A DNA stretch of 64,000 nt from an uncultured virus (IMG/VR IMGVR_UViG_3300034018_000714) (Duplodnaviria; Heunggongvirae; Uroviricota; Caudoviricetes): the IMG/VR virus record IMGVR_UViG_3300034018_000714. The stretch is one strand, 5' to 3'. The translations under genes and the position numbers were made by a program. How positions within the stretch are numbered: the first letter of the stretch is position 1; the number at the start of each line of letters is the position of its first letter. The notes below the pieces were generated by a model. That model was given only the letters and a program-made list of their open reading frames with translations. It was not told the DNA's origin and made no database searches. Shown here in pieces: positions 1 through 18,865 of the stretch.

Positions 1-337
1 GCCCTCTCGTGTGTGCCCCCGATTCCATAGCCCCAGCCGTAGTGCATGACCATGCAGTCATTTATGCATAAAAAGTGATCAATTTTGGTGATTTCCCTTA
101 CGCCACAAGGGTTTCCGCCGATGTATGAAAAATATGCGATGTCAAAACCAAAAAGCCCGTTTTTATTGCCTTTTTTGACATGGCTTATGTGCAATTAGTC
201 AATGAAAACAGGGGTATTTGCAATACTGCATAAACATGCAGAAACGCCGTAGAGGCGCCAAAAATGCTTTTTTGACTCGTTATAGCCAAAGGGGGGTTAC
301 TAACGGGTAGAGGGGCTCTACTAGCGGGTAATGGGCA

Positions 338-434
338 TGTGACGGTGGTCACATTTGGGGGTATGTGACGAAGGTCACAGGGTCATGGTGTGTCGTTGGT
401 CACACCCCCCCATGGTTAAGTGACGGGCGTCACA
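338..434. promoter_or_regulatory. Cluster of four CRP/GlxR-like palindromic boxes (TGTGA-N6-TCACA)
   Basis: TGTGAcggtggTCACA 338-353 and TGTGAcgaaggTCACA 364-379 (perfect); TGTGTcgttggTCACA 389-404 and AGTGAcgggcgTCACA 419-434 (one mismatch each). Confidence 0.6.
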
Positions 435-532
435 CGGTCGGGGGGTAGGGGCGACTAAGCCCTAAGTCACAAAACACCCCATAGCCCTATCCAGGAAAAC
501 ACCCCGATCACCAAATAGCCCTATACTGGGTC

Positions 533-727
533 ATGGCTATCCATGAATTCCAGCAGCCACTAGAGGTTTCTACCCCTCTCGGTGATGGGGTGGCCCTGCT
601 TCTCATTGATTATGGCTGGGGCGCTAACAGTTGCTGGGTTGTCGTGCTTGAGTCGGGTATTGTCAAGCACTTTGAGTCCAATGACATCAGGTTCCGACCT
701 AACCCCACATGGGGAATATTGAAGTAA
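533..727 (+). CDS. Hypothetical protein (64 aa)
   Basis: ORF track; TATACT 522-527 lies 5 nt before the ATG. Confidence 0.7.
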   Translation: MAIHEFQQPLEVSTPLGDGVALLLIDYGWGANSCWVVVLESGIVKHFESNDIRFRPNPTWGILK

Positions 728-736
728 ACTGGGTAT

Positions 737-1132
737 ATGGCACTTAACCCTAACCAATTCCATGCAATCCTGAAACCTAGTGTGACATGGAGCGCCGATG
801 AAAGTGGTTACAGTGCTGATATTGGTATTGTAAACCCAACAGACCCTGATTCTGCCGTGGGTGGGCGTATTAGTTGGTCTAGCCGTGGTGGTAATGCAAG
901 ATTCTTTAGCAATCGTGGGGATGTGTACGGCATTGATGGTCATCACAAGACACCTAGCGCCGCTGTGACTGCATTCAACAAACAACATATTCCTAGCGCC
1001 AAGATAACCAAAAAGTTCAAAAACTCTGAGGTACAGCCTCTTGCTGAACAAATCCAATCCGCTGGTGGTTATGACGGCTGGAAAGACATGGTCAATGCTT
1101 CTTCCGCCATGGTCGGTGGACCTTTTAAGTAG
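737..1132 (+). CDS. Hypothetical protein with N-terminal LNPNQF tag
   Basis: ORF track; TAAACT-N6-ATG; starts MALNPNQF. Confidence 0.75.
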   Translation: MALNPNQFHAILKPSVTWSADESGYSADIGIVNPTDPDSAVGGRISWSSRGGNARFFSNRGDVYGIDGHHKTPSAAVTAFNKQHIPSAKITKKFKNSEVQPLAEQIQSAGGYDGWKDMVNASSAMVGGPFK

Positions 1133-1144
1133 TAAACTAGTTAT

Positions 1145-1558
1145 ATGAGTCGTAGAGATAACTTTAATGAAGGCCATGGTAACGAGAACCATTGGTTGCA
1201 ACCCATTGGTCCTGAAGAAATACAGGAATTATTGGCTATTGGTCGTGCAAGTAAAGAGCGAGCAGATTGGAACAGAGAGCGTGAACAGGCTCCTGTCAAC
1301 CTGAGCGACCGAACTGACCTCCAAATGCACCTTGTAAGCGCACATGGCATGCATCCAGACGAAACTATGTTCTATGACGAGTCCTCACACGACTCTATCC
1401 CTGCATTAGCAGGTCGTAAGCGCAACTGGAACGGTCCTACAGTCCCCGAATTAGACCATACAGACCTCCACCACATGCATGATCACGAACACACAGCAGG
1501 TGAGTACGCATCAGACTACCCACACACCACAATGGGCTCTAGTCACTTCCACCACTGA
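1145..1558 (+). CDS. His-rich hypothetical protein, possibly metal-binding
   Basis: MHLVSAHGMH, LHHMHDHEH, terminal HFHH; TAAACT-N6-ATG. Confidence 0.7.
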   Translation: MSRRDNFNEGHGNENHWLQPIGPEEIQELLAIGRASKERADWNREREQAPVNLSDRTDLQMHLVSAHGMHPDETMFYDESSHDSIPALAGRKRNWNGPTVPELDHTDLHHMHDHEHTAGEYASDYPHTTMGSSHFHH

Positions 1559-1559
1559 C

Positions 1560-2081
1560 ATGCCAGTACCTACAGGTCCACAGTTTGTAGTCTTTCACTC
1601 ATCTAGTTCGCAAACACCCCCACATGAGGTAGAGCACCCAAGGGCGGCTAGGTTGGCTGTCGGAGGTGGTATGCCCCTTTCAAACAAGCACCCAGACATT
1701 GTTCACGCTGGAACCCTTGCCGCTGCACAAGAAGTAAGTGCTAACTCCAGAATCTGGTTCCACCAGTACGGTATTGACCCTTCTGAGGAGTACCCAGTCA
1801 CATTTGGCGATGAAACAGCGTCAACACACGACAACAATGTGGACTCAGTAAATTACAGTGATACTAAAAATTTTAAAGAAAAAATGTCTGGTGTACAGCC
1901 AGGATTGTTTGAGTCTGTGGCTGGAACCCCTGATATCGCTCTAAAGAGTAACCGTGCCGTCCCATACCGCAATGCTTTAGAAGACGCAGGAAATATCTCT
2001 TATATGATCCCCAAGGGAGCAGTCGGTAAGACAGTGAAGTACCTCGGTGTAAAGTCAGCACGAGAGTTAGAAGAACAATAG
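1560..2081 (+). CDS. Putative ADP-ribosyltransferase-like protein (paralog of 5460-6008)
   Basis: Start revised to MPVPTGPQF right after upstream stop; VFHSS...IVHAGT..AA...YRNALEDAGNISYMIP pattern resembles ART folds of phage polyvalent proteins. Confidence 0.55.
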   Translation: MPVPTGPQFVVFHSSSSQTPPHEVEHPRAARLAVGGGMPLSNKHPDIVHAGTLAAAQEVSANSRIWFHQYGIDPSEEYPVTFGDETASTHDNNVDSVNYSDTKNFKEKMSGVQPGLFESVAGTPDIALKSNRAVPYRNALEDAGNISYMIPKGAVGKTVKYLGVKSARELEEQ

Positions 2082-2140
2082 CCACTAGGGCGCTGAACGG
2101 AGTAAAAAATTTCGCCGTTTGACCATAGTAAAATAGTATT

Positions 2141-2503
2141 GTGCCTGCATACGATAAATTAAACAAAGTACTTTTCCACGGTACGGGACACTACTTTGAC
2201 GAGGGTGAAACAATTAAACCCTCTACTGGTCATGTTGTTGAAGGAGAGCACTCTGGTAGCGCACTATCCTTCGCTACGACAGACATTAGACGAGCACGGT
2301 CACGGGCTGGAGTAAAAGCAGCCAGTATGGGGATGTTGTTTGCCCCTGTTTATAGCGTTGAGTCACCTGACGATGTCAAAGTTAAAACAGGCGATCTGGT
2401 AGACAAGAGCGATCACATCTCTAAACAGGGCCATGTTGTTCAGAAAATCGTTGACTGGGGCGTGAATAAGAACATTCAACCCATTGACCCAGAATACGAG
2501 TAA
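2141..2503 (+). CDS. Arr-like ADP-ribosyltransferase-fold protein
   Basis: LFHGT...G.TI.P...FATTD...A...PVYSVE resembles the Arr (H-Y clade) ART signature; TAAAAT-N6-GTG. Confidence 0.65.
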   Translation: MPAYDKLNKVLFHGTGHYFDEGETIKPSTGHVVEGEHSGSALSFATTDIRRARSRAGVKAASMGMLFAPVYSVESPDDVKVKTGDLVDKSDHISKQGHVVQKIVDWGVNKNIQPIDPEYE

Positions 2504-2512
2504 ACTAGATAA

Positions 2513-2905
2513 ATGCCAGCCTCGGATCATGTCAACCCATATCAACTGAAGTTGTTTATGACAGCAGGTGAGTTGATGGACACTGACTCTAGTGACGCTA
2601 ATTTAAGTACTTTACGAGAAAATAGCAGCATACACGGACGAAAACTGGAAGAATCCAAGATGAACTGGGAGGATTACCACAATAATCACTTCCTTCCGTG
2701 GACTCCAGACTCAGATGACTCCAACTTGTACGAAAGTATCCAGAAAAAGGGTGTCCAGAAGCCCGTTGAAGTTTACTTAAGTAAAAATACAGGTCAGTAC
2801 AGACCGATTATTACCGATGGAAACCACAGAACAGCGGTTGCTAACGACATTAACCCCAATATGTACATTCCTGTTGAGTACGACCACTTCAAAATTAAGG
2901 ATTAG
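2513..2905 (+). CDS. Stand-alone ParB/Sulfiredoxin-like N-terminal domain protein
   Basis: LYESIQKKGVQKPVEV...IITDGNHRTAVA...IPV; no HTH. Confidence 0.75.
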   Translation: MPASDHVNPYQLKLFMTAGELMDTDSSDANLSTLRENSSIHGRKLEESKMNWEDYHNNHFLPWTPDSDDSNLYESIQKKGVQKPVEVYLSKNTGQYRPIITDGNHRTAVANDINPNMYIPVEYDHFKIKD

Positions 2906-2907
2906 CC

Positions 2908-3759
2908 ATGGCATTTGATTATTTTAAAGAAGCCAGATTACCCCGTATGCCTACATACACGGCTGTGGGACCAGAGTTTGAACAAAAAGATTCTTTTACT
3001 GGTGATATAGAAAAGCGCCGCCCGTATGCAAGTGTCTCTGTAATGCATAATCCATCACGGTATGTTGTTCCCTACCCTAATAACCAAAAATATAAACACA
3101 ACCAGCGTGATCCACATGGTGTTACAGGTTTAAGTGAAGGTTATTTAGACCATCTTTCAGAAACTATTAGGTCAAAGCCAGAGGACGACTGGACTGGTGC
3201 CGATGACTCTGCGATACAAGTATTACAAACTATTCACTCTGGTTCTCCCCATCGGATAAACGAGAGATTTGCAAAAACACACATGGAAGGTAACCCACAC
3301 TTTCAACCAGAAACTTTGTTTGAAAGAGTTCCATCGTCTATACAAATTGACAACATGATGGCGGACCCAAGTATGGGACACGCTGCTATTACACTTGCTG
3401 CCCTTGCCAAGCGTGACTTGGGGGCAGAAAAAGTGATTGCATCTAATGACTTATCTTATTACAGCAGTAAGTTAACTAAGACAGCACTAAAAAAGGGTTT
3501 AGTTGAGACAGACCCGTCAAACCCTGACGCAGATCAAACAAATTATATGAGACAACACAATCGTTCTGTAGATAGTGCGTCTGCCAACAATGTGTGGGGT
3601 AATGACGAGCCTGATACCCCTGTATCCCCTGACTTGGTTCGTGCAGCCCGACAGGATGTTCGTGAGATGCTTCGCAAGCCTAAGGCTAGAAATACCACAC
3701 CTGTAACCAAAAAAGGTCTCAGTGACCAGTTTCTCCCTGGTATGGAAGGATTTGTCTGA
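2908..3759 (+). CDS. Hypothetical protein with possible GNAT-like domain; paralog of 3759-4637
   Basis: IDNMMADPSMG..AITL...ASNDLSYYSSKL; C-terminal GLSDQFLPGMEGFV shared with next gene. Confidence 0.6.
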   Translation: MAFDYFKEARLPRMPTYTAVGPEFEQKDSFTGDIEKRRPYASVSVMHNPSRYVVPYPNNQKYKHNQRDPHGVTGLSEGYLDHLSETIRSKPEDDWTGADDSAIQVLQTIHSGSPHRINERFAKTHMEGNPHFQPETLFERVPSSIQIDNMMADPSMGHAAITLAALAKRDLGAEKVIASNDLSYYSSKLTKTALKKGLVETDPSNPDADQTNYMRQHNRSVDSASANNVWGNDEPDTPVSPDLVRAARQDVREMLRKPKARNTTPVTKKGLSDQFLPGMEGFV

Positions 3760-4637
3760 TGGTTGATTATATTCGTGAGAACCATAGTCGTTACGGAGGT
3801 AGTCGGTACAACCCTGCTGGGTCTGTTACTAACTACAGAGCACTAGGTAAGTCAGACGAAGAAACAGGTCGTACCCCTTACGCAGCCCTCACTGTGCACC
3901 ATACTTATGCTGGTTATGCCCCTACCTTTGATAATTCTGAAGAAGGCACTGTTTCTGGTCTATCAGATGACTATATCCAACACAAACGGTCAGAAATGTT
4001 TGACAAAGAACGGTCTGACGAACCTTCTACAAAGGAAAGAACTGATGCCATGGCTGCACTGAAAATTTTGCAGCACACTAGCACCTATGGGGAAGACCCT
4101 GACTCCGTAAAAGATATAAAGTCTTGGGCTGTTGATCAAGCGCATAACAATCCACACATTGCTCCAGATAAATTGTTTTTTGAAACTAATCCAGCAAAAA
4201 CACACATTGGTTCTATGTTTGTAGACCCCTCCATGAAAACCTCAGGAATCAACCTACTTGGTATTGCCTATGACGAGCATAATAAAGCACCATTTGAGGC
4301 GGATAGTTCACTTACACGATTTAGTAGTAGGTTGACCCAGAATGCAATGAAGCGTGGTCTACCAGTAACTGGTAGTTACTCTAACCCCAATGCAGAGAGC
4401 ACTGCTGACGATTGGGATAACCCAACTCACGGAGAGCAATCAATGGGTAATGACTATGCAGATAGATTGCGTAGAAGTGGTCCTTCTTTTACGAGGGCAC
4501 AACCTATCTCTGACTTAGGTCTTATCCGAGGTAAAACTGGTGTGCGTGAAATGCTTGGAAAAACACGAAACACAAAGCCAGTAACCTCTAAAGGTCTTAG
4601 TGATCAGTTCTTGCCAGGAATGGAAGGTTTTGTTTAA
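3759..4637 (+). CDS. Hypothetical protein with possible GNAT-like domain; paralog of 2908-3759
   Basis: IGSMFVDPSMKTSGINLL...ADSSLTRFSSRL; same C-terminal tail; TGATG coupling. Confidence 0.6.
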   Translation: MVDYIRENHSRYGGSRYNPAGSVTNYRALGKSDEETGRTPYAALTVHHTYAGYAPTFDNSEEGTVSGLSDDYIQHKRSEMFDKERSDEPSTKERTDAMAALKILQHTSTYGEDPDSVKDIKSWAVDQAHNNPHIAPDKLFFETNPAKTHIGSMFVDPSMKTSGINLLGIAYDEHNKAPFEADSSLTRFSSRLTQNAMKRGLPVTGSYSNPNAESTADDWDNPTHGEQSMGNDYADRLRRSGPSFTRAQPISDLGLIRGKTGVREMLGKTRNTKPVTSKGLSDQFLPGMEGFV

Positions 4638-4840
4638 TGGGTGAGTTAGTTGACCTCAATGAGTTTCGTGAGCGCAAATTAAGTTCACAGTTTGACGCTG
4701 AAAAGCAAAAGCGTGCAGACGACAAGAAAAAGCGCCAGCAGAAACAAAACCAGCGTGAACGCCGAGAAAATGAACTTGACGATTCAATGATGCGTCACCC
4801 TGCTTATCAGAGCAGAAAAAAGAAGTTTGAAGACGACTAG
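4637..4840 (+). CDS. Small charged hypothetical protein
   Basis: ORF track; TAATG coupling; VDLNEFRERK and LSSQF motifs. Confidence 0.65.
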   Translation: MGELVDLNEFRERKLSSQFDAEKQKRADDKKKRQQKQNQRERRENELDDSMMRHPAYQSRKKKFEDD

Positions 4841-4849
4841 ACTGTCAAA

Positions 4850-5023
4850 ATGCCTACATACCAGTACAAGTGCTCCAACGACCACTTCTATGAAGAAGAT
4901 CGGTCTATTCACTCAGAAGAACCAATTATTACCTGTGATCAATGCCATGAAGACATGAAGAAGGTTTTTGGCTCCCCAAGTATCAACCTTGTTGGTCGTG
5001 GGTTCTACCGCAACGGCGGTTGA
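4850..5023 (+). CDS. FmdB-family zinc-ribbon protein (57 aa, below ORF-track cutoff)
   Basis: Translated by hand: MPTYQYKCSNDH...TCDQCHEDMKKVFGSPSINLVGRGFYRNGG; TAGACT-N6-ATG. Confidence 0.8.
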   Translation: MPTYQYKCSNDHFYEEDRSIHSEEPIITCDQCHEDMKKVFGSPSINLVGRGFYRNGG

Positions 5024-5037
5024 TGTAAACTTATTAA

Positions 5038-5445
5038 ATGGCTACTTGGCATCATCTTAATGAACAACTCTTTATGCCAGCCAGTATGCTCCGTGAAGAA
5101 CTTGAAGGCTCAGACCTTGAAATGACCACAAAAGATGTCACTAGGTCTGGTCATCCTTCTGAAGAATTATTCTGGAATCGCAAAAGCGATGAAGCATATA
5201 AGTCAGGACTGCATACGAGCCTGCGTAAAGAGGGGATGGTCAACCCCATTCGTCTTGGCAGGAGCCGTGGTCAGACCAGTATTGTCAATGGTGCACACCG
5301 TATTGCCGCCGCACATGACATTGATCCCCTATGGATGGTCCCTGTGACCTACAAAGAGGCTGTCAACGACCCAGAGGCACAGTCTGACCGCCTCCCAGGC
5401 CATGTTCATCGTGAAGATGAGACTTATCTCCACGAACTTGACTAG
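5038..5445 (+). CDS. Stand-alone ParB/Sulfiredoxin-like domain protein
   Basis: LHTSLRKEGMVNPIRL...IVNGAHRIAAA...VPV; TAAACT-N6-ATG. Confidence 0.75.
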   Translation: MATWHHLNEQLFMPASMLREELEGSDLEMTTKDVTRSGHPSEELFWNRKSDEAYKSGLHTSLRKEGMVNPIRLGRSRGQTSIVNGAHRIAAAHDIDPLWMVPVTYKEAVNDPEAQSDRLPGHVHREDETYLHELD

Positions 5446-5459
5446 TGTAAAATAGATAG

Positions 5460-6008
5460 ATGCCAGCGCCCACAGGACCACAGTTTCAAAGAGTATTCCA
5501 TCGGTCTAACTCAGATACTCCTGTGCACCTTCAGGAAGCCACCACAAGGCAGGCATACCACCCTGACTCTAATTATCACCCTGACATCTTTCACGCTGGT
5601 ACAGAGGAATCTACCAAAGAAGTTCGTTTTAGTAACCGCCCATACATGCACGAGTATGAAATTGATATGTCCCACCCTTCTATATCACCTGTTACTTGGG
5701 GAGAAGAGGGAAGTATCTTGCGTGACCACGCTTCAGTAGAAAATAATCCAAATAATGACTGGTCCTCGTATAAATTAGGAGTAGTGCAGGAGTTTTCTGA
5801 CAGTATGAGGGGCAAACAAGAAGGGTTGTTTGAAAGCATTCCTGCTGATGCACAGTATGCAGCAGAAAAAGGATCTATTCTTCCATATCGCAACAGAGTT
5901 GAAGATAAAGGAAGTATTTCGTACATTGTTCCAAAATCATCTGTTGGTGGCGCTGTGCGCTTTGTTGGCACCACTAGAGTTCCAACACCCTACGATAAAG
6001 TACAATAG
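5460..6008 (+). CDS. Putative ADP-ribosyltransferase-like protein (paralog of 1560-2081)
   Basis: VFHRS...IFHAGT...YRNRVEDKGSISYIVP; MPAPTGPQF start; TAAAAT-N6-ATG. Confidence 0.55.
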   Translation: MPAPTGPQFQRVFHRSNSDTPVHLQEATTRQAYHPDSNYHPDIFHAGTEESTKEVRFSNRPYMHEYEIDMSHPSISPVTWGEEGSILRDHASVENNPNNDWSSYKLGVVQEFSDSMRGKQEGLFESIPADAQYAAEKGSILPYRNRVEDKGSISYIVPKSSVGGAVRFVGTTRVPTPYDKVQ

Positions 6009-6012
6009 ATAG

Positions 6013-6897
6013 ATGGCACGAAAAGGAACCAAGGACGCTCTGGGGACACCACTACCCCCAGAGGAAACAATTCCAGTTGCCAATGTTCCAAAAATTACCC
6101 CCGTTAAAGAGGGTCAACAACACCCTATGGGTAAGCACGGTCAGTACAAACTGTTCCATGAACATGTTTGGCCTAAGGGTTACACCCCTGACCGATTAAA
6201 GCAAGTTAGTGATGCACAGTTTCGTGTAAGTGCTGGTGGGTTTCACGACATTGATACCAGCAATTACGACAATCGTGATCGTGATCGTGCCATTAATAAC
6301 AAAATTGGTTCTGCTCTGGTAAATGATCACATTGCTAGATCAACTATTCCCATTGATGAAGTACGAAATTTAGCAAAAAATGTTACCTTTTGGATTGGTC
6401 AAGATAAACCATACCCAGAAACTAATAGTTTTAGTTTAAGTGGTCAAACAGTTAATCTGGCTTTAAAATCTCATAATACTGCTGGTGACATCCAAGCCAT
6501 TACCACTCATGAACTTGGTCATGCCAACGACTATTTAAACAATCCAAGTGGCATGTGGAACAGGCTTAGTGAGGCGCATAAAGATCCATTGAGTTATAGG
6601 TACGCTGGTGGTGGTGTAGCAGAACCACTAAGTGAAGGAAATGCCGAAGGGTACCGACTTGCCCACGCACGAGTAACCAGGGGTCAAAAAAGAACTGGTG
6701 GTGACTGGACCAAGTATGGGTACTCACCTAAGGGGTGGGTGTTTCCTGAAATGGGTAGTCGGTATTTAGAAGCAAGAAATACAACTTTTAAACAGGCTAC
6801 TGGTCATCACTTTGAAGAACAGTTGCCCGAAGGTTGGTCACCGTTTGATGGATACGAAAAGAAGAAGAAACAACCAACTCTATTTGATGACCTTTAA
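6013..6897 (+). CDS. Zincin-like metallopeptidase
   Basis: HELGH motif plus downstream E (LSEGNAEGY); TACAAT-N6-ATG; C-terminal QPTLF. Confidence 0.7.
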   Translation: MARKGTKDALGTPLPPEETIPVANVPKITPVKEGQQHPMGKHGQYKLFHEHVWPKGYTPDRLKQVSDAQFRVSAGGFHDIDTSNYDNRDRDRAINNKIGSALVNDHIARSTIPIDEVRNLAKNVTFWIGQDKPYPETNSFSLSGQTVNLALKSHNTAGDIQAITTHELGHANDYLNNPSGMWNRLSEAHKDPLSYRYAGGGVAEPLSEGNAEGYRLAHARVTRGQKRTGGDWTKYGYSPKGWVFPEMGSRYLEARNTTFKQATGHHFEEQLPEGWSPFDGYEKKKKQPTLFDDL

Positions 6898-6915
6898 TCG
6901 GCTAAAATAGATACT

Positions 6916-7146
6916 GTGAAACAGATTCTTCTCCGTATCCTTGCCACTTTTGCAGCCACTGGTCTTTCCGTTGTTGGCGCAGGTGCTATTGCTGGTATCC
7001 CACTATGGAAAGCCGTACTGATGGCAGGTATTGGTGGTGTCTCATTTGTAGTTGAAGGTCTTGCTCGTGCCTTCATGGATGATGGAAAACTTACCGTTGA
7101 CGAGATCAACGATGTATTTAACAAAGTTGATAAAAAAGGTAAATAA
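6916..7146 (+). CDS. Small two-TM membrane protein (holin-like)
   Basis: Two hydrophobic segments, then DDGKLTVDEIN and a basic tail. Confidence 0.6.
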   Translation: MKQILLRILATFAATGLSVVGAGAIAGIPLWKAVLMAGIGGVSFVVEGLARAFMDDGKLTVDEINDVFNKVDKKGK

Positions 7147-7598
7147 TGGCTGCCAAGCGTGCCATCAACCCTAACCAACTTCGTTTGTTTATGAGCGCCC
7201 GTGAGTTGCGTGAGCACTTTGATCCTAACTGGGGAGATTTTGAAGGTGACGAAACAGAACCAAAACAAGTTTGGGATAGAAAGTTAAGCGCCTCTAAAGA
7301 AACTGGTCTTTATGACGACATCAAAGATATTGGTGTTCGTGTACCAGTAACTATCACGGGTAACCCAGATGGTGGTGAATTTAACCCTGAGGTAATGGGT
7401 GGTCACCATAGAATCGCTGCCGCTTATGACATTAACCCTGACATGGAAATTCCAGTTAACTATGACGACAATGTTGAAAGTGCTTGGAATGTTGAGCGGG
7501 AGCGTGGATCGTCAGACCCCGTCCTTCAAGAACATGTGAAGAAAAAGTACGGCGGGTTTGGTCAGCCTCAAAACTTTAAAACCCTTAATGATTGGTAA
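7146..7598 (+). CDS. Stand-alone ParB/Sulfiredoxin-like domain protein
   Basis: LYDDIKDIGVRVPVTI...VMGGHHRIAAAYDINPDMEIPV. Confidence 0.75.
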   Translation: MAAKRAINPNQLRLFMSARELREHFDPNWGDFEGDETEPKQVWDRKLSASKETGLYDDIKDIGVRVPVTITGNPDGGEFNPEVMGGHHRIAAAYDINPDMEIPVNYDDNVESAWNVERERGSSDPVLQEHVKKKYGGFGQPQNFKTLNDW

Positions 7599-7612
7599 GG
7601 TACAATAGGTAC

Positions 7613-7855
7613 ATGTCAAGAAAAAAGCCTGAACAGGACAGCATGTCCGATGAAGAGATTAACGAAGACACCACCAGCGACTACATCGGTGGTCGTTTTT
7701 TAAGCCGTGCCCAGCGCAACCAAGCCGCTTTTGCAAAAGGTGTGACAGGTCGCTGTGGTTGTAAAGACGAAGGTTGCAAGGACTGTGAAAACCACCAGAT
7801 GTGGACGGCACTCCTTGACTCTGACGCAGGCGTCACTTCTCGTCAACAGTTCTGA
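7613..7855 (+). CDS. Small hypothetical protein with Cys cluster
   Basis: Start revised to ATG 7613 (TACAAT-N6-ATG); CGCKDEGCKDC. Confidence 0.65.
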   Translation: MSRKKPEQDSMSDEEINEDTTSDYIGGRFLSRAQRNQAAFAKGVTGRCGCKDEGCKDCENHQMWTALLDSDAGVTSRQQF

Positions 7856-7869
7856 TTTTTAATTAAACA

Positions 7870-8025
7870 ATGTTTGTAACCTACCCTGTTCACACGGTCC
7901 TCATGACCGATGCCATTAAGATTGCTACCAATCTGGCAAAGGCTAGTGGTTACAAGAACATTGTCCTTTCCAAGACTATCCAGGTTGCTGCCAGTTCTTG
8001 GGATGTCATCCTCGTGGTGTCATGA
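7870..8025 (+). CDS. Small hypothetical protein (51 aa)
   Basis: Hand translation MFVTYPVHTVLMTDAIKIATNLAKASGYKNIVLSK...; ATGA overlap with next ORF. Confidence 0.55.
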   Translation: MFVTYPVHTVLMTDAIKIATNLAKASGYKNIVLSKTIQVAASSWDVILVVS

Positions 8026-8147
8026 GTGATGCCAAAGACTGTTCTACTCAATGTGTTTGGTGTGGGGGCAAAATGCGTCCTGAACACGCTCATTATAAGT
8101 GCGAATCTTGCGGCGCTAGGGATGCTTGCTGCGAGGGAGTTTATTGA
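8022..8147 (+). CDS. Small zinc-finger protein (41 aa)
   Basis: Hand translation MSDAKDCSTQCVWCGGKMRPEHAHYKCESCGARDACCEGVY; two CxxC pairs. Confidence 0.7.
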   Translation: MSDAKDCSTQCVWCGGKMRPEHAHYKCESCGARDACCEGVY

Positions 8148-8482
8148 TGAGCGCCTCTGATCATGTAAACCCTCGGCTATTCCATGGAACAGGTCATTAT
8201 TTTGGTCCAGGAGAGACTATTGACCCAAGAAGTCCTGGCGCTAATCCTTCAAGAGAAAACCCAACTATTAATAAAACATATGCCACTAGTAATATGGAGT
8301 ATGCTCAATATTACGCTAAATTAGAAGCATGGGATAAGGGGATGTTGTTTGCCCCAGTTTATGAAGTAAAGATGGAAAACCCCGAACGCTTTGCTAATGA
8401 GTTGTATAGTTCAACCAAACCTTTAGTTCCAAAAAAGATTGCTGGATGGGGTACTTGGAACCAAATGAATGAAGATGAGTAA
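8147..8482 (+). CDS. Arr-like ADP-ribosyltransferase-fold protein (paralog of 2141-2503)
   Basis: Start revised to MSASDHVNPRLFHGT; TYATSN.EYA.YYA...GMLFAPVYEV. Confidence 0.7.
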   Translation: MSASDHVNPRLFHGTGHYFGPGETIDPRSPGANPSRENPTINKTYATSNMEYAQYYAKLEAWDKGMLFAPVYEVKMENPERFANELYSSTKPLVPKKIAGWGTWNQMNEDE

Positions 8483-8487
8483 TTCTG

Positions 8488-8517
8488 AATAATTATGCAC
8501 AGTTGTGTATAATTATT
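8488..8517. promoter_or_regulatory. Inverted repeat formed by two facing DnaA-box-like 9-mers
   Basis: TTATGCACA (8493-8501), 2-bp gap, TGTGTATAA (8504-8512); both fit TT[AT]TNCACA. Confidence 0.45.
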
Positions 8518-8535
8518 AATGAGGTCTTTACCCAC

Positions 8536-8568
8536 CGAGGGGGGCTGCTTGAGGGCGGCCCCTCTTCG
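8536..8568 (+). terminator. GC-rich stem-loop, probable terminator
   Basis: cgaggggggctgc...gcggcccctcttcg imperfect stem in an intergenic gap; no strong U-tract. Confidence 0.45.
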
Positions 8569-8587
8569 TGTCTAGTAGAATAGTTAT

Positions 8588-9088
8588 ATGGCAGGCAAAC
8601 GAATCTTAAATAATGATCAGTTTTTTTCTGAGGTTCATTCAGGTTTTAGTAGCCCTGTACGCATCATAAATGAACAAGGTATGTCAGAGTTAATTGGTCA
8701 TAAGGCTGATGTTCACCTCCACAGCCCTGCTACCGAAAAACTGGGGAGACCTATCTACAGTGTGTTAGTTGGTGGGATAGTCCAAGGTCAAGCCGAAAAC
8801 ATTTATCTTAGAGATTCAAAGATGAAGGTAGACAAGAAGCAACTACAGGCTCACCTTGATAGCCCAACAGGGGCTAAGACACGAAATACCTTTAACTCAG
8901 GAATTGTTGACAATGTTCCTGCGGAACCACCTACCCGTAGGTTAGATATGCGTCCAGGAATTATGCGAGATTTCAAAACAAAAGAAGATGTCTCTTCTGG
9001 TGTAAGTGGTACTTACCTTACCAGCAGAGTCAATACAAAAAATGTAGTAAAACCGTTTCTCGGCTATACCCCGTATCCTAAAAAGTAA
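8588..9088 (+). CDS. Hypothetical protein with N-terminal LNNDQF tag
   Basis: ORF track; TAGAAT-N6-ATG. Confidence 0.7.
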   Translation: MAGKRILNNDQFFSEVHSGFSSPVRIINEQGMSELIGHKADVHLHSPATEKLGRPIYSVLVGGIVQGQAENIYLRDSKMKVDKKQLQAHLDSPTGAKTRNTFNSGIVDNVPAEPPTRRLDMRPGIMRDFKTKEDVSSGVSGTYLTSRVNTKNVVKPFLGYTPYPKK

Positions 9089-9594
9089 TGCCTGCTCCAA
9101 ATGGTCCACAGTGGTACGAACACTGGCAAGACAAAGTTAAAAACGCACCAGACTCAGTAGTTAACGAGTACGAAGAGCGCCATACTGATATTAGAAAAAC
9201 TCCTAAACAAGTTCAAGAATGGTCACAATCTTCGGTATTTTCTCCAGCAGACTTTCCTACTAAAACACTAAGCAGTATGGATAGTCAAAACCCTAATGCC
9301 CAATCTACAGATCATCCTGACTTTCTACATGACATGATGAAAGGTACAGGTGTCCCTGAACATGTGACTGTTTATCACCATGGAGATGCACCTAAGGACG
9401 CTAAATATGCAAGCGGTTCTGTTGACCCTAACTGGAATAAAGATGTTAGAGAAGGGTGGCGCAGTACAGACCCTTCAGTAAATAAAGGTAGATTGCATAT
9501 CTATTTAGTACCTCATGAGGATATTTTGAGTGTGGCACCAATGGAGAAAGAGGTATTCTTCCGCCGTGGCGCACCACTCAGAAAAAAGAAGTAA
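9088..9594 (+). CDS. Putative ADP-ribosyltransferase-like protein (R-S-E-like topology)
   Basis: VTVYHHG...YASGSVDP...LHIYLVP..DIL...EKEVFF; MPAPNGPQW start. Confidence 0.5.
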   Translation: MPAPNGPQWYEHWQDKVKNAPDSVVNEYEERHTDIRKTPKQVQEWSQSSVFSPADFPTKTLSSMDSQNPNAQSTDHPDFLHDMMKGTGVPEHVTVYHHGDAPKDAKYASGSVDPNWNKDVREGWRSTDPSVNKGRLHIYLVPHEDILSVAPMEKEVFFRRGAPLRKKK

Positions 9595-9603
9595 ACTTAC
9601 TTA

Positions 9604-11031
9604 ATGCTGAAATCCCGTTTGCGGATTACAAGTTGTTTTTTGTGGCTATCGCTCACAATGTTGGGGTTTTATCCGTCATCTCCCGCTAAAGCCGAAACCT
9701 TAACCACCTCTGGTGCCAGTGACTTCTACTTTGAGTTAGAGGCTGGTAATACTTTTACTGTGCGCTCAACCGCCCAACAATACGGTATTGACAGCATGCT
9801 CTGGTTGTACAACAGTAATAACACTGTTCTGGTTTCAAATGATGACTACTTTGGTTTAGATTCATATATTTCTTATGATGTACAAGAAAGTGGTACATAC
9901 CGTCTCCGCACAGGAGTTTGTTGCGGTGATCCTAATAGGTGGTATGGAACTTCATACACAATTCAAACTAACTCTGTGCCTAGTGAAATGCCCCCACAAC
10001 CAACTACGACAACGACTAGCACCACCACAACGACAATTGCCCCGTATTTAAACGCCCCACAGAATTTAATTGTCACATCTACAAACCAAAATAAGGTTTA
10101 CTTATCATGGGATGCCCCAGAACAATCTAATGCTCAGGTAGAGAGATACGCTGTTTTTTTCTCAAATGACAACTGGCGTACTGGATGGGCAATTTCGTCA
10201 ATACAGACATCCGCAGTTGTTGAAGACCTAACACCGAATACCGAATACCAGTTTAAAGTTCGTGCTGATAACGATTCTATTACCGTTTATTCGGGATGGA
10301 GTAATGAGGTATCAGGTTTAACTTTGCCAGTACCTACGACAACGACCACTACAACGATTTATGTGGCACCTTCAACCACTGTGCAGCCAACCACCACGAC
10401 AACCGAGTTGACCACCACCACTTCTTCAACGACCACAACTTCTTCTTCAACAACGGTGCCACCAGTCGTGACGATGGCTCCAACCACAACCACAACGACA
10501 ACAGTGCCAGAAACAACAACCACAGTAATAATTCCATCAACTACGACTATAGCGCCTGAAGAAGACCCCGTGCAAGGGGTTGATACAGAGGTATTGGCTC
10601 TTCTGGGCGCTATTGCTGATCTTCCACAGGAAGAAATTCAAGCCGCTGTGGACAACATTATTGAAGAAGGTGTTAGCGCCGCAGAGGCTGAAGAACTGGC
10701 TACAAACCCTGATGTCATCCAATCGGTGACCGCAGAGCAAGCCGCAGAAATCTTTGATTCTGTGGAAGTATCTGATCTTTCTGACGAACAAGCAGAACAA
10801 CTGGTAGAAGCCGTTCAGGGCGCTTCAGAAGAAGTCAGAGCCGAATTTGAAGAAAGCATCAATGTGTTTGACAACAAGTTTAATAGTTATGTTCCCATTG
10901 GATCAAACATCAATGTTGGACAGCGTAAGGTTCTAGTAGCCGCAACTGGTGTATTATTTATGGCACCAGCAGTTACTGTAACTTCCTCGTCTTCCAGCGG
11001 TCACCAGTCAGATTCCCGTAAGAGGCAGTAG
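9604..11031 (+). CDS. Membrane-anchored surface protein: signal peptide, PPC-like domain, FN3 domain, Thr-rich stalk, C-terminal hydrophobic segment
   Basis: DSMLWLYN...NDDYFGLDSYI (PPC-like); APQNL..VYLSWDAP..LTPNTEYQFKVRA (FN3); long T-runs. Confidence 0.75.
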   Translation: MLKSRLRITSCFLWLSLTMLGFYPSSPAKAETLTTSGASDFYFELEAGNTFTVRSTAQQYGIDSMLWLYNSNNTVLVSNDDYFGLDSYISYDVQESGTYRLRTGVCCGDPNRWYGTSYTIQTNSVPSEMPPQPTTTTTSTTTTTIAPYLNAPQNLIVTSTNQNKVYLSWDAPEQSNAQVERYAVFFSNDNWRTGWAISSIQTSAVVEDLTPNTEYQFKVRADNDSITVYSGWSNEVSGLTLPVPTTTTTTTIYVAPSTTVQPTTTTTELTTTTSSTTTTSSSTTVPPVVTMAPTTTTTTTVPETTTTVIIPSTTTIAPEEDPVQGVDTEVLALLGAIADLPQEEIQAAVDNIIEEGVSAAEAEELATNPDVIQSVTAEQAAEIFDSVEVSDLSDEQAEQLVEAVQGASEEVRAEFEESINVFDNKFNSYVPIGSNINVGQRKVLVAATGVLFMAPAVTVTSSSSSGHQSDSRKRQ

Positions 11032-11201
11032 TGAATAGATTTTTTGAAGAATTGCAAGGTTTAGCATGGACCCTGGCTGGAACGGCTTTGGTTTTAATTA
11101 CTTTGTCTGGTCAAGTGCGTACTTATGGTCTGTGGATCAGCGGTGTAGCCCTAGTTGTACATGTTGTCTCTGCCATAGCCAAGGGCTCAGACGAGGACTA
11201 G
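11031..11201 (+). CDS. Small two-TM membrane protein (56 aa)
   Basis: Hand translation MNRFFEELQGLAWTLAGTALVLITLSGQVRTYGLWISGVALVVHVVSAIAKGSDED; start overlaps upstream stop. Confidence 0.65.
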   Translation: MNRFFEELQGLAWTLAGTALVLITLSGQVRTYGLWISGVALVVHVVSAIAKGSDED

Positions 11202-11223
11202 TAACCTCAAGTACAATAGATAC

Positions 11224-15520
<4,297 letters not shown>

Positions 15521-15521
<1 letters not shown>

Positions 15522-16737: not shown

Positions 16738-17823
16738 ATGATTGTTAAACCATTTAACATTGATGTTATTAAAACACACAAGTTGTTTTATGTACTAGAC
16801 CACATTGCAGAAACTACCGTAGATTTATACCGCCGTACTCCTGCTGGCGATGATCCATTTGTGGATGCCGAAGTATTTTCTATGCAAGATGGGCACCTTG
16901 TAGTTGCCATCGCACACCCTTTTAAATACTCTGCTAATAATTGTTTAATTGCTAAACAAGGGGATATTGAAGAGATTGTCAACCTTGTGTCATGGGAACG
17001 ACTTGTTGATTTTTATGACACAGACATCGCAAACACTGACCAAGGTTTCTTTGCTTTTTGTGATTCTCAAGCACTCTTTGACCCAGCAGTTGAGTGGCGG
17101 TGTGACAACACCATGTTTGGACCACACACTTTTATACGAGAAGATGGTCGCATTGTACCTACAATCAATAAACTAAAAGCGTATGAAACGATATTGAGCC
17201 TTCATGGTGTCGGTTATCTTATTTACTTACATCTTCATGACGATGCAGAAGTTCGTGAAAAATATAAAAATAACTCAGAAGTACCTTGCGTGGGTCTTAC
17301 GCTATCTGAATCTTTTAAATTACTTCATGAATGGTCGGAAGTAACTAAAGAACCGTTTAACAGTACACAAGACATTGCCCTTAAAGCATCTGAGTTTTTG
17401 AATACTTTTGGCTTTACCCCCGACCTTGTTGATAGCCAAGTTGACATGCAAGTTGCTAACTACTTAAAAGGTAGTGATCATGCACGGTTACGCCCTACGG
17501 ATGTACAGCCCAACAAACCAGAACTTATTGAGTTTGTTAAAAAGAATATGGCAAGTAGTTCACTATCATCGTTGTCAGTTCTTTACCCAGGAATTTGGGA
17601 TACGCAGGAACTTTTAAATGCGGAGCAAGATGAACTAAATGCTGGTATCCAACGATTTAGGGACTACTACCAAATTCCAGAAGATTGGGAAATGTCTGAT
17701 ACTTACCGAATCGTTGAGCATTGCCAATTACACATTCATGAAACAGTTGGACCATATGTACATAACCAGTTAAGATTATTTAAAAACAAGAAGCAGGTCC
17801 TTGATGAGATTCCACATAGTTAG
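16738..17823 (+). CDS. Hypothetical protein (361 aa)
   Basis: Long ORF with RBS (aagagga); no motif recognised. Confidence 0.75.
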   Translation: MIVKPFNIDVIKTHKLFYVLDHIAETTVDLYRRTPAGDDPFVDAEVFSMQDGHLVVAIAHPFKYSANNCLIAKQGDIEEIVNLVSWERLVDFYDTDIANTDQGFFAFCDSQALFDPAVEWRCDNTMFGPHTFIREDGRIVPTINKLKAYETILSLHGVGYLIYLHLHDDAEVREKYKNNSEVPCVGLTLSESFKLLHEWSEVTKEPFNSTQDIALKASEFLNTFGFTPDLVDSQVDMQVANYLKGSDHARLRPTDVQPNKPELIEFVKKNMASSSLSSLSVLYPGIWDTQELLNAEQDELNAGIQRFRDYYQIPEDWEMSDTYRIVEHCQLHIHETVGPYVHNQLRLFKNKKQVLDEIPHS

Positions 17824-18865
17824 TCTTCCTCACACAAACACCACTGAAGATTTTACGGCTTGCGCCTATACAGAAAAGATTCGCAAGTTCTGCATCATGA
17901 TGAAAGACCTTGGTCATACGGTATACCTGTATGGCGGAGAGTTTAATGAAGCACCTTGTGACGAACACATTGTTTGTATTACAGAAGAAGAACGGCTTGT
18001 TGCAGTCGGAGACAACCATTACTCAGCGGCTTCCTTTGATTGGACACTTCCCCACTGGGTTAGTTTCAACAATAATGTCATCAAGGGGATCCAAGAGCGT
18101 CTAGAGCACAAAGACTTTATTTGTCTTATATCTGGTTATGCTTCCAAACCAATTGCTGATGCTTTCCCCAACGAACTGAGTGTGGAGTTCGGTATTGGTT
18201 ATGGTGGATCATTTGCACCATTTAAGGTGTTTGAGTCCTACGCATGGATGCATTCCTGCTATGGGTCTAAGGTTACAGACCCTCATGCCCTTGACGGAAA
18301 GTTCTATGACACCGTCATTCCTAGTTACATTGATGTTGATGATTTTCCATTGCAAGAAACACCTGGGGATTACTATCTATACATGGGACGCCTTATTGAG
18401 CGCAAGGGCTATCAGATAGCCGTAGATGTCTGTAAGGCTCTAGGGAAGCGTCTGGTGATCGCTGGACAGGGTGTACCACCAGAGTACGGTGAGTATGTAG
18501 GTGTTGTAGGAACAGAAAAAAGAGCCGAACTCATGGGAGGCGCAATAGCCCTATTTGCACCCACAATTTATGTGGAGCCTTTTGGAACAGTGGCTATTGA
18601 AGCGATGGCTTGTGGCACCCCTGTTATCTCTACCGACTGGGGCGCTTTTACTGAAACTGTCCAAGACGGAGTGACGGGGTTCCGTTGCCATACTCTTCAA
18701 GAGTTTGTAGATGCGGCTAAAAAGGCTCCAGAACTAGACAGGAAATCAATCAGCACCTACGCTAAAGACCGATACGGTCTTACCCCCGTTGGTTTAATGT
18801 ATGAGAAGTACTTCAATCGCCTCCTCACTTTGTGGGAAGATGGTTGGTACCAATTAAAGGATTAA
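17804..18865 (+). CDS. GT-B fold glycosyltransferase (GT4 / Glycos_transf_1)
   Basis: YMGRLIERKG; EPFGTVAIEAMACGTPVISTDWGAFTETVQDGVTGF. Confidence 0.9.
   Translation: MRFHIVSLPHTNTTEDFTACAYTEKIRKFCIMMKDLGHTVYLYGGEFNEAPCDEHIVCITEEERLVAVGDNHYSAASFDWTLPHWVSFNNNVIKGIQERLEHKDFICLISGYASKPIADAFPNELSVEFGIGYGGSFAPFKVFESYAWMHSCYGSKVTDPHALDGKFYDTVIPSYIDVDDFPLQETPGDYYLYMGRLIERKGYQIAVDVCKALGKRLVIAGQGVPPEYGEYVGVVGTEKRAELMGGAIALFAPTIYVEPFGTVAIEAMACGTPVISTDWGAFTETVQDGVTGFRCHTLQEFVDAAKKAPELDRKSISTYAKDRYGLTPVGLMYEKYFNRLLTLWEDGWYQLKD

Follow-up and report, generated by a model that had tools for sequence, protein, structure and literature searches.

The window analysed here, a 64,000-nucleotide stretch of an uncultured Caudoviricetes genome (IMG/VR IMGVR_UViG_3300034018_000714), encodes terminase, portal, capsid, sheath, baseplate, DnaB, and PolA proteins, the gene content of a myovirus. 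Its capsid protein shares 60% identity with that of Streptomyces phage BRock, and the metagenomes holding the region come from lake and freshwater sites only, with no RNA run among the holders listed. The source is likely an uncultured freshwater actinophage with a host of actinobacterial lineage. Positions 533-9594 hold 21 small ORFs, all on the + strand, in line with the roughly 20 short co-oriented genes of a preliminary description, and this array is the start of a long rightward gene block leading into tail-fibre and head genes. BLASTP recovers real paralog families whose copies are interspersed, the sole exception being the 2908/3759 pair, as had been proposed. Several proteins carry one of two N-terminal peptide tags, T1 (approximately M-A/S-A-x-D/E-H-L/I/V-N/S) or T2 (MPAPTGPQ-like). 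The array and its conserved flank are as follows (ART, ADP-ribosyltransferase).

533..727, +: small ORF, 64 aa; TATACT five bases 5′ of ATG
737..1132, +: orphan ORF, 131 aa; leaderless-type promoter, heptamer at 724
1145..1558, +: His-rich ORF, 137 aa; promoter heptamer at 1132; homolog in related locus L038 (43% identity)
1560..2081, +: family A copy 1, predicted ART fold; T2 tag (MPxPTGPQ-type); start coupled to the stop of 1145-1558
2141..2503, +: family B copy 1, predicted ART fold; GTG start; degenerate T1 tag; promoter heptamer at 2128
2513..2905, +: family C copy 1; T1 tag; promoter heptamer at 2500; phrog_723 at 1.4e-4
2908..3759, +: family D copy 1 of 283 aa; start with a Shine-Dalgarno sequence; no confirmed GNAT fold
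3759..4637, +: family D copy 2, 292 aa; start overlaps the stop of copy 1
4637..4840, +: small charged ORF, 67 aa; homologs in 5 loci
4850..5023, +: Zn-ribbon protein (FmdB-like), conserved backbone gene; in 18 loci
5038..5445, +: family C copy 2; promoter heptamer at 5025; different location in L006
5460..6008, +: family A copy 2, predicted ART fold; T2 tag; promoter heptamer at 5447
6013..6897, +: zincin-like protein with HExxH motif; promoter heptamer at 6000
6916..7146, +: backbone gene for a small, holin-like membrane protein; in 20 loci
7146..7598, +: family C copy 3
7613..7855, +: small ORF, 80 aa; promoter heptamer at 7600; homologs in 8 loci
7870-8025 and 7998-8147, +: two small conserved backbone ORFs (46 and 21 loci)
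8147..8482, +: family B copy 2, predicted ART fold; T1 tag; Shine-Dalgarno start
8483..8587, +: conserved element between genes, with two hairpins ahead of the 8588 promoter
8588..9088, +: family E, 166 aa, no assigned function; promoter heptamer at 8575; in 15 loci
9088..9594, +: family N, putatively ART-like; T2 tag; conserved H...SGS...ExE
9604..11031, +: secreted or membrane PPC+fn3 protein, conserved flank; array-type promoter, heptamer at 9591
11224..11943, +: anchor gene, conserved, LtfC-like beta-sandwich; array-type promoter, heptamer at 11211

The true starts of family A copy 1, family B copy 2, and the 80-aa ORF are 1560, 8147, and 7613; starts at 1479, 8126, and 7592, respectively, were rejected.

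Families A and B account for four of the five proteins previously called ART-like. The copies are paralogs (1560 versus 5460, 41% identity, E 5e-37; 2141 versus 8147, 39% identity, E 5e-18; both BLASTP), and the fold of 1560 and 2141 is assigned through the modelled structures of 5460 and 8147. These models confirm an ART fold, with ParT/RES toxins and PolyVal ARTs nearest to family A and Arr and Tpt1 nearest to family B. In BFVD, the family A model matches ART-PolyVal-like (E 1.4e-3) and PolyVal ADP-ribosyltransferase (E 2.3e-3) proteins as well as a 1375-aa large polyvalent-associated protein. Its Foldseek E-values against the PDB are weak (best 0.066), the closest solved folds being the toxin-antitoxin toxins ParT, RES, MbcT, and NatT. 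Identity is 4-9% between family A and ParT, RES, and MbcT and 9-18% between family B and KptA and Arr. Neither family has sequence-profile membership in known ART families, Pfam ART-PolyVal and MPTase-PolyVal give no match at E ≤ 0.1, and A and B have no detectable relation to each other (hhalign probability 0.1%). Of 17 family B sequences, 15 have the candidate glutamate; copy 2141 has a serine at that position. The fifth protein, 9088, has no Pfam or PDB sequence match; its H...SGS...ExE pattern and its nearest Atlas clusters, language-model neighbours that carry PF03496 (score 0.93), suggest an ART-like protein.

The three proteins described as ParB/Srx-like (2513, 5038, and 7146) are confirmed as such at the profile level. 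They pair among themselves at E 5e-18 to 2e-9 (BLASTP), and their family C profile matches ParB 6t1f at E 9.4e-5 and sulfiredoxin at 0.11, with an invariant G-x-H-R in the alignment and Pfam matches that fall short of the cut-off. Inside the first 25 residues, 40 of 65 family C members carry Q[LF]x[LM]F, and this N-terminus (Q-L-R/K-L/M-F) resembles the beta-clamp-binding pentapeptide consensus.

A GNAT identity for the 2908/3759 pair is not confirmed. The two copies (33% identity, E 1e-32 by BLASTP) have an LPGMEGF-type C-terminal end in common and belong to a widespread family, yet none of the best 150 relatives, all of 153-328 aa, matches a GNAT Pfam model, and PDB profiles give no match; an Atlas model of low confidence (pLDDT 0.51) is weakly GNAT-like and flagged under the bar. 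For the presumed zincin at 6013, the HExxH motif holds (H166, E167, H170, and D173 are invariant in five of five family members), whereas its metallopeptidase matches are weak and sub-threshold.

Among the remaining genes, the frame of 533..727 shows 97% amino acid identity to L006, versus 58% for the opposite-strand ORF, and no family match was found for it; 737..1132 has no homolog among 83 loci and no Pfam or PHROG match. The Zn-ribbon protein matches PF09723 at 5.7e-9, passing that model's cut-off, and the membrane protein matches phrog_26427 at 1.2e-20 and phrog_443 (holin) at 1.9e-5. These two genes and the two tiny ORFs probably form a conserved backbone on top of which single-gene cassettes are set. 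The family E gene is missing from L006 and swapped for other content in a variant from run X8. In the flank, 9604..11031 (fn3 at 1e-12) occurs in 67 loci, and the anchor gene served as the query that fetched 80 relatives.

Ten array genes and two flanking genes have a -10-like motif six bases 5′ of the ATG, which is the geometry of leaderless transcripts; leaderless starts, and any timing of expression, are predictions from that geometry. The pattern TAnA[ACT]T-N6-[AG]TG before an ORF of at least 40 aa occurs 18 times in the window versus a mean of 1.8 (maximum 6) in 100 shuffles, which upholds the proposed per-gene promoters, and 12 of the 18 matches lie on the + strand from 737 to 11224. Within the window, neither -35/-10 promoters (10 found versus 18.5 in shuffles) nor terminators (13 versus 11) are in excess. 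The array-type promoter also precedes the conserved flank genes 9604 and 11224 and is found at genes 20846, 46746, and 52522 on the minus strand; since conserved flank and distant genes carry it, it is no marker of an early class. The hairpins at 8483-8587 (MFE -42.4 kcal/mol, z -4.3) are kept at 84-96% identity in L006, L007, L009, and L016 and have no match in Rfam.

The shared peptide tags of the preliminary description are real: T1 and T2 are interchangeable and occur on at least 20 unrelated families, T1 alone marking 65 different gene starts, which fall into 20 clusters or singletons. Where tag residues are identical, third-base identity reaches 0.40, versus 0.38 expected from codon usage, so the tags are conserved as peptide, not as DNA. 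Upstream of the anchor gene, 76 of 1207 ORFs are tagged, versus 11 of 1024 downstream. N-termini vary within family A (T2, T1, or a third type) and family N (T2 or T1), while across 17 family B sequences the tag ranks with the most conserved stretches. All tagged genes open with M-A, M-S, or M-P, and the first 10 residues have lower model confidence (67) in both models, those of families A (5460) and B (8147).

Cassettes turn over, with junctions at promoters. Across the 55 relatives with at least 7 kb upstream of the anchor gene, array order is not fixed and copy number varies (family D, for example, has one to four copies), as expected of the separate, shuffleable genes proposed earlier. Blocks of 88-96% identity shared with L006 stop within ~15 bases of gene starts or promoters, except that one end lies 37 bases within gene 737-1132. 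The segment missing from L006 is exactly 8575-9590, running from promoter to promoter, and L006 positions 311-720 match window positions 5035-5444 at 95%. The family B copy 1 cassette (promoter plus gene) is missing in three of four lake metagenome runs, at a 2126->2499 joint where AGTAAA opens both sides and which contigs bridge by 101-107 bases in two runs and by 24 in the third; each of the remaining joints depends on a single contig whose sides span 30 bases. A family A gene has its start overlapped by a family D gene in L001 and L003.

The preliminary description is thus confirmed in part as observation and supported in part as interpretation. Its polyvalent-type repertoire stands: ART is the commonest protein-modifying domain of polyvalent proteins, which also include ParB-like domains and a zincin peptidase, and solo ParB, GNAT, and ART versions adjoin late (virion) genes, a setting that Iyer et al. 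(2017, PMC5512222) took to indicate late expression and packaging. The family A match to proteins named PolyVal ART adds to this likeness. In contrast to polyvalent proteins, the array proteins are single-domain (110-295 aa), and the available text of PMC5512222 makes no mention of own promoters with short terminal tags. A split polyvalent protein is not supported: the search for fused forms gave none for family B (weak evidence), and the best 150 family D relatives include none either. The array also resembles the hyperplastic regions of T4-type phages with their PeSL promoter/stem-loop cassettes (Arbiol et al. 2010, PMC2839356), where small non-essential genes each lie behind a repeated host-type promoter and motif recombination explains insertions, deletions, and replacements between close relatives. 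Here, however, the motif is -10-only and abuts the ATG without a -35 box, the stem-loop is mostly absent (8483-8587 is the one hairpin-plus-promoter composite), the host lineage is actinobacterial, and the cargo is mainly ART and ParB-like enzymes.

One possible but rather unlikely reading is that the tags load unrelated small enzymes into the prohead for injection with the DNA. The precedent is the T4 internal proteins and Alt, in which a short N-terminal peptide is common to unrelated small counter-defence or host-modifying proteins; the internal proteins are diverse defence proteins with only the capsid targeting sequence in common (PMC3012670). The breadth of T1, its peptide-level conservation, the concentration of tagged ORFs upstream of the anchor gene, and the swapping of tags within families A and N alongside their conservation in family B favour such packaging, as does the published reading of solo ParB and GNAT versions near late genes as capsid cargo (PMC5512222). 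The array tags, however, come in two or three interchangeable types unrelated in sequence to the T4 capsid targeting sequence, and have no known processing site or partner. Moreover, none of the window's genes for head, scaffold, or tail carries a tag, promoters that host polymerase can read would agree at least equally well with early expression, and a search of cultured relatives found none carrying the array gene families.

It is improbable that the tags lack a targeting role and instead meet a translation or N-terminal processing need of leaderless mRNAs or dock a host factor. Their uniform first residues and low model confidence, which fits a flexible peptide, would agree with this, and the family C pentapeptide with docking, but that clamp-like motif is restricted to family C, several tagged genes are not leaderless (8147 has a Shine-Dalgarno start; 1560 and 9088 are translationally coupled), and the lack of conservation at the DNA level argues against an mRNA signal. 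Very improbable is a role of the ART genes as toxin modules, with small neighbours as antidotes, in addiction or exclusion between phages or between phage and host: the toxin folds closest to family A and the D/A overlaps in L001 and L003 would suit it, but there is no fixed partner (the window A copies follow 1145 and 5038), neighbours vary between relatives, and no Xre- or ParS-type antitoxin family was matched in Pfam or PHROG. Families A and B differ from Arr, Tpt1/KptA, ParT, and RES/MbcT in their 4-18% identity and in having no antitoxin partner.

The best explanation, and a probable one, is a hyperplastic region serving host takeover or anti-defence, with cassettes that recombine at their promoters. 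Counted against it are the occurrence of the array-type promoter at conserved flank and distant genes, the single-contig basis of the remaining joints, the position of the array at the head of a block into tail-fibre and head genes, a context that Iyer et al. read as late (PMC5512222), the weak family A Foldseek E-values, and the family B glutamate that is not universal. In the proposed mechanism, most cassettes bring their own -10-only promoter, (A/T)GTAnA(A/C)T; because this lies six bases from the ATG, transcripts made by host RNA polymerase should begin with the start-codon A, giving leaderless mRNAs. The repeated promoter sequences would be recombination sites, so that promoter-plus-gene units are deleted, inserted, and moved. 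Their products, presumably small enzymes (three ART-type families, ParB/Srx-like NTPase or nuclease domains, the HExxH protein, and family D), would most likely modify or deplete host targets such as proteins, NAD+, and nucleic acids in the service of takeover or counter-defence.

The DNA between 533 and 9594 holds 21 small ORFs, all in one orientation, and the best-supported reading of it is a hyperplastic accessory region whose promoter-plus-gene cassettes recombine at their promoters. BLASTP among these ORFs, named here by their start coordinates, confirms the paralogy noted in the preliminary description: (i) family A, 1560 and 5460 (41% identity, E 5e-37), (ii) family B, 2141 and 8147 (39% identity, E 5e-18), (iii) family C, in which 2513, 5038, and 7146 group together, and (iv) family D, 2908 and 3759 (33% identity, E 1e-32). 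Paralogs are interspersed, as described there, for all save the D pair. Pfam and PHROGs recognize almost nothing in the array beyond weak ParB matches (2513, 5038), a Zn-ribbon in 4850 with a Pfam match above the cut-off, and the holin-like membrane protein 6916. Among 5.8 billion clustered proteins, families A and B have only 21 and 14 relatives, respectively, and family D has 605 representative clusters at E ≤ 1e-3. Gene 1145–1558 encodes a small His-rich protein, with H and D concentrated in the final 40 residues. A leaderless-type promoter of its own precedes the gene, whose stop adjoins the start of the ART gene 1560, and a 43% identical homolog is present in the related viral locus L038.

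The window, 64 kb and nearly all on the + strand, carries the gene set of a contractile-tailed phage, including tube, helicase, and UvsX-like recombinase genes and, by start position:

22699, terminase
29481, portal
32080, major capsid protein
37575, sheath
46746, baseplate wedge
54476, DnaB
59911, PolA

At 60% identity, the capsid protein matches those of Streptomyces phages BRock, GiJojo, and others, the GC content is ~45%, and the array region occurs, whole or in part, in 24 runs from 21 studies, only in lake-water or freshwater metagenomes and in none recorded as RNA. The host is therefore likely a low-GC freshwater actinobacterium; a search of the window for WhiB or another host-marker gene gave no match. 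The 50,697 cultured phage records searched gave no match by blastn with 1500–9400 or by tblastn with 8147 and 7146. Scanning viral contigs with the 5460 protein by itself returned no relative, family A has no match in the nearest virus record (G001; 60 kb, 64% complete), and no Rfam family lies within 1–12000. Other genes in the window include:

9604–11031, conserved flank gene (67 loci): signal-peptide-like start, PPC and fn3 domains, long Thr-rich linkers, hydrophobic C-terminus
11880–15521, tail-fibre protein of 1213 aa, largely collagen-like G-x-T/G-A-T repeats
17801–18862, glycosyltransferase genes between both collagen-like tail-fibre genes
19194–19715, shorter paralog of the 1213-aa tail-fibre protein
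27748–28398, proteasome/HslV-type peptidase gene (PF00227 1.1e-9, above cut-off; phrog_1040), flanked by a metallophosphoesterase gene and the portal gene
51398–51850, − strand, ferritin/Dps-like gene (PF00210 at 2.3e-17), within a short leftward block of small basic proteins directly ahead of the replication module

The Thr-rich part of 9604–11031 varies in populations, since lake contigs hold many alternative sequences of it (loose ends at 10001–10524). The peptidase may serve this lineage as prohead protease, or its substrates may be the tagged proteins.

Eleven genes, all within 724–11224, have the heptamer GTA[ACG]A[AC]T placed six bases ahead of their ATG. A looser pattern, TAnA[ACT]T-N6-[AG]TG ahead of an ORF of at least 40 aa, occurs 18 times in the window, whereas 100 shuffles averaged 1.8 occurrences and never exceeded 6, an enrichment that bears out the per-gene promoters proposed earlier; 12 of the 18 sites lie on the + strand at 737–11224. 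Genes 533 and 6916 carry the same hexamer with spacings of 5 and 7. Actinobacterial promoters have a −10 element of the form TANNNT, leaderless mRNAs are frequent in these bacteria, and six bases after the −10 hexamer put +1 at the A of the ATG. This spacing leads us to read the genes as transcribed leaderless by the host polymerase; the gap between promoter and ATG is too short for a ribosome-binding site, and the window shows no excess of −35/−10 pairs. Remaining genes have a Shine-Dalgarno sequence (2908, 3759, 4637, and 8147) or overlap the preceding stop (1560, 7146, and 9088).

The array resembles an actinophage, leaderless counterpart of the PeSL-flanked T4-type cassettes, as the excerpted text of PMC2839356 portrays them: both have a repeated host-type promoter before each small gene and recombination between the copies. 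PeSLs bring a stem-loop terminator with each promoter, whereas the window has no excess of terminators (13 versus 11 expected) and a single hairpin-plus-promoter composite at 8483–8587. Two strong hairpins form in this intergenic element (MFE −42.4 kcal/mol, z −4.3), of which the second is rich in GC and immediately precedes the 8588 promoter. The element is 84–96% identical in four relatives, exceeding the conservation of the flanking genes. It has no Rfam match and may be a terminator-plus-promoter composite like PeSL.

Turnover of the cassettes is evident among relatives. The anchor gene (11224–11943, LtfC-like beta-sandwich) was used as the seed of the locus scan, the alignments of families B and C (A2, A3) being too variable, and retrieved 80 related viral loci on contigs of up to ~99 kb. 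In the 55 loci with at least 7 kb upstream, array content, order, and copy number all differ, as in the following examples (Z, HExxH gene 6013; E, 8588 family; N, 9088 family; F, conserved flank gene 9604):

Window: A-B-C-D-D-...-C-A-Z-...-C-...-B-E-N-F
L009: B-C-B-D-D-D-...-C-A-...-C-N-B-F
L004-6: D-D-D-C-...-D-C-...-F
L020: Z-A-B-...-D

The order is kept for small backbone genes (Zn-ribbon, membrane protein, and two tiny ORFs), F, and the anchor. Homology to L006, whose anchor is 86% identical, comes in 88–96% blocks ending at gene or promoter borders, with the exception of a block end at 774, 37 bases into gene 737–1132. The block 6903–7149 is exactly one gene, another ends five codons into 8147, just past the start of its tag, and the ParB-like cassette 5035–5444 has a different location in L006. 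L006 also runs directly from 8573 to 9591 and thus lacks both cassettes between the promoters of 8588 and 9604.

Exchange of the same kind is seen within lake populations. The joint 2126->2499 is present in contigs from three of four lake runs, with a shorter bridging side of 101–107 bases in two runs and only 24 in run X5; it removes exactly the promoter and gene of 2141, and both sides begin with AGTAAA, the promoter core. In run X8, the sequence past the ATG at 8588 is a T2-tagged gene that replaces family E (a loose end). Joints 1147->1555, 8151->9088, and 9129->9603 were rejected as evidence, being single contigs with 30-base sides.

Two N-terminal peptide tags recur on unrelated families of the array, as first noticed in the preliminary description. 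T1 (approximately M-A/S/P-A-x-D/E-H/N-L/I/V-N/S) is found in strict form in 2513 and 8147 and in a looser form in 2141, 7146, 5038, 8588, and 1145, while T2 (MPxP-T/N-GPQ) starts 1560, 5460, and 9088. In the window and 83 related loci, the T1 pattern is found in 76 of 1207 ORFs upstream of the anchor versus 11 of 1024 downstream; its 65 distinct starts fall into 20 clusters or singletons, which comprise ParB-like proteins, ARTs of families A and B, small GNATs, and several families without assigned function. Between families, third codon bases at identical tag residues agree at 0.40 versus 0.38 expected from codon usage, and by this sequence comparison the tag is conserved as a peptide and not as DNA. 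Positions 8–9, outside the search pattern, are mostly N/S, then P/G. The tags are interchangeable: members of family A start with T2, T1, or a third type, and those of family N with T2 or T1.

Five genes had been called ART-like. AlphaFold models of families A and B contain the split beta-sheet ART fold, and four genes (1560, 5460, 2141, and 8147) have it by these fold matches. H14, H45, Y66, E125, and E148 are invariant in 16 family A sequences, as are H13 and Y72 in 17 of family B, 15 of which also have a Glu; by alignment, these are candidates for the catalytic H-Y-E or R-S-E residues that ARTs carry on strands 1, 2, and 5. Against predicted viral structures, the family A model retrieves a family member (E 9e-13); it also matches "ART-PolyVal-like domain-containing" proteins (E 1.4e-3 and 6.4e-3), a "PolyVal ADP-Ribosyltransferase" (E 2.3e-3), and a 1375-aa "large polyvalent protein associated domain" protein (E 1.3e-2), with low TM-scores of 0.35–0.41 for the PolyVal-named matches. 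No relationship between families A and B is detectable by hhalign (A1 versus A2), and at E ≤ 0.1 no Pfam family, Arr and ART-PolyVal profiles included, matches 1560, 2141, 5460, 8147, or 9088. No significant match among PDB sequences was obtained with profiles of alignments A1 (family A), A6, A7 (6013), A8 (9088), and A9 (family D), and the family B profile (A2) found only pertussis toxin S1 (E 0.39–0.95).

The fifth gene, 9088, has only its first nine residues in common with family A. H97, S109-G110-S111, and E153-x-E155 are invariant in all six members of its family N, and the Atlas clusters closest to it in language-model features carry PF03496 ADPrib_exo_Tox (score 0.93, 20 of 30 hits). 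On the basis of this motif and these neighbours, 9088 likely encodes a further ART fold, with no Pfam or PDB sequence match. By analogy of fold with Alt/ModA/ModB, ParT/RES, and Arr/Tpt1, the ARTs would be expected either to consume NAD+ or to modify proteins, nucleic acids, or small molecules of the host. The arrays of relatives contain further tagged, probably ART-like families (L058:6116–6664, L068:1337–1765, and relatives); one tagged family has T1 followed by LFHGTS and a weak PARP match (E 0.006), a second has T1 or T2 ahead of RLHRG/RLYRG, and methyltransferases, a PhyH dioxygenase, and an epimerase are also present.

The assignment of 2513, 5038, and 7146 as stand-alone ParB/Srx-like genes is upheld. 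The family C profile (A3, 11 sequences) matches Caulobacter ParB (6t1f) at E 9.4e-5, with sulfiredoxin, KorB, Spo0J, and Noc at 0.1–0.5, a ParB-like PHROG matches at 1.4e-4, and G86, H88, and R89 of the G-x-x-R box (here G-x-H-R) are invariant in the 11 sequences. At E ≤ 0.1, PF02195 is found in 3 of 11 members (best 0.0037), and the best score, 14 bits, does not reach the gathering cut-off of 26.3. A partition ParB would have HTH DNA-binding and dimerisation domains and a ParA partner. These proteins of 100–150 aa correspond to the N-terminal domain only, and no ParA-like gene was matched within the window. "NPxQPR" is the ParB box motif; T1 was considered as this box and rejected, as the ParB match spans profile positions 50–114 only and the tag lies 35–45 residues ahead of the core. 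A Q-L/F-x-L/M-F motif resembling the bacterial beta-clamp-binding pentapeptide consensus occurs within the first 25 residues of 40 of 65 family C members. It is confined to family C and was discarded as a common basis of all tags. The HExxH proteins of the window and L020 have Q-x-x-L-F-D-like C-termini.

The GNAT identity proposed for 2908 and 3759 was not confirmed: none of 150 family D members matches an Acetyltransf Pfam family at E ≤ 0.05, and 25- and 150-sequence profiles found no GNAT in the PDB. A low-confidence Atlas model (pLDDT 0.51) aligns ~96 residues to GNAT clusters (TM 0.28 by query, 0.44–0.62 by row), with 9 of 10 rows GNATs and flagged "under the bar". Genuine small GNATs with the same N-terminal tag exist in the arrays of relatives (L008:6186–6566, PF00583 23.5 bits versus a cut-off of 20.7), where a second tagged small GNAT scores 19.8 bits against that cut-off (L001:7722–8036). 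In L001:9132–10486 and L003:9240–10519, a gene of family D runs over the start of an ART gene of family A. A GNAT domain is a typical neighbour of the ART domain in polyvalent proteins, according to the portion consulted of Iyer et al. (PMC5512222), and the overlap would parallel that neighbourhood only if family D were a GNAT.

For 6013, described as an HExxH zincin, the motif holds, with H166, E167, H170, and D173 of HExxHxxD invariant in 5/5 sequences, while peptidase family matches are all sub-threshold: ADAM17 at E 0.5 around the motif, and PF10023, PF20573, and PF14891 in one of five members each (E 0.011–0.031). An LPGME(GF)-type ending at the C-terminus recurs in 27 of 41 family D members and, although the HExxH family is unrelated, in 3 of its 6 members; it is found in the window (2908–4637, 6013–6897) and in L016, L038, and L068. 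Because its codons in the window hold GGAAGG right ahead of the next gene's ATG, they may also serve the downstream gene as its ribosome-binding site.

The same domain repertoire is found fused in polyvalent proteins and solo beside late genes, as the consulted sections of Iyer et al. (PMC5512222) present it. Polyvalent proteins have at least two disparate domains per polypeptide, whereas all ORFs here are single-domain. No longer relative of family B was found, which argues only weakly, and the best 150 family D relatives measure 153–328 aa. With no fused forms found for family B or among those 150 relatives, the earlier image of a split polyvalent protein is unsupported as history and stands as a functional comparison.

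The array proteins may act after early expression or may instead arrive in the virion; in the latter, less likely case, they would be cargo loaded by means of the tags. The T4 capsid targeting sequence, as the available text of PMC3012670 describes it, is likewise a short N-terminal peptide on unrelated proteins, and the array adjoins tail-fibre genes. The T4-type signal entails encapsidation and prohead protease cleavage. A host-type promoter on each gene argues against packaging here, as does the lack of the tag on any structural protein of the window. An extended and unlikely form of this idea takes the two interchangeable peptides as address labels of a plug-and-play cargo system, in which any small enzyme gene gaining both a label and a leaderless promoter cassette would have its product directed to the virion (or another common phage or host machine) for delivery at infection. 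In the literature searched, neither leaderless promoter cassettes nor N-terminal tags held in common were described for the effector arrays of actinophages.

Were the address-label idea true, a freshwater actinophage lineage would maintain ARTs, ParB-like enzymes, and acetyltransferases in separate genes, an arsenal reshuffled fast and variable in populations, in contrast to other phages that fuse the same domains into one polyvalent protein. Whether short N-terminal peptides on unrelated effectors are a general addressing device outside T4 is a testable question. Two ART-fold families and a family of >600 clusters, none with a cultured representative, are candidate enzymes for host takeover or anti-defence, and the minimal −10-to-ATG promoter might find use in actinobacteria as a compact element for expression. 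Phages of lake Actinobacteria, which are abundant hosts, offer a sequence-resolved natural example of trade in counter-host genes, in which a single promoter and its gene are exchanged as a unit with the junction inside the promoter, visible both between relatives and within single lake populations.
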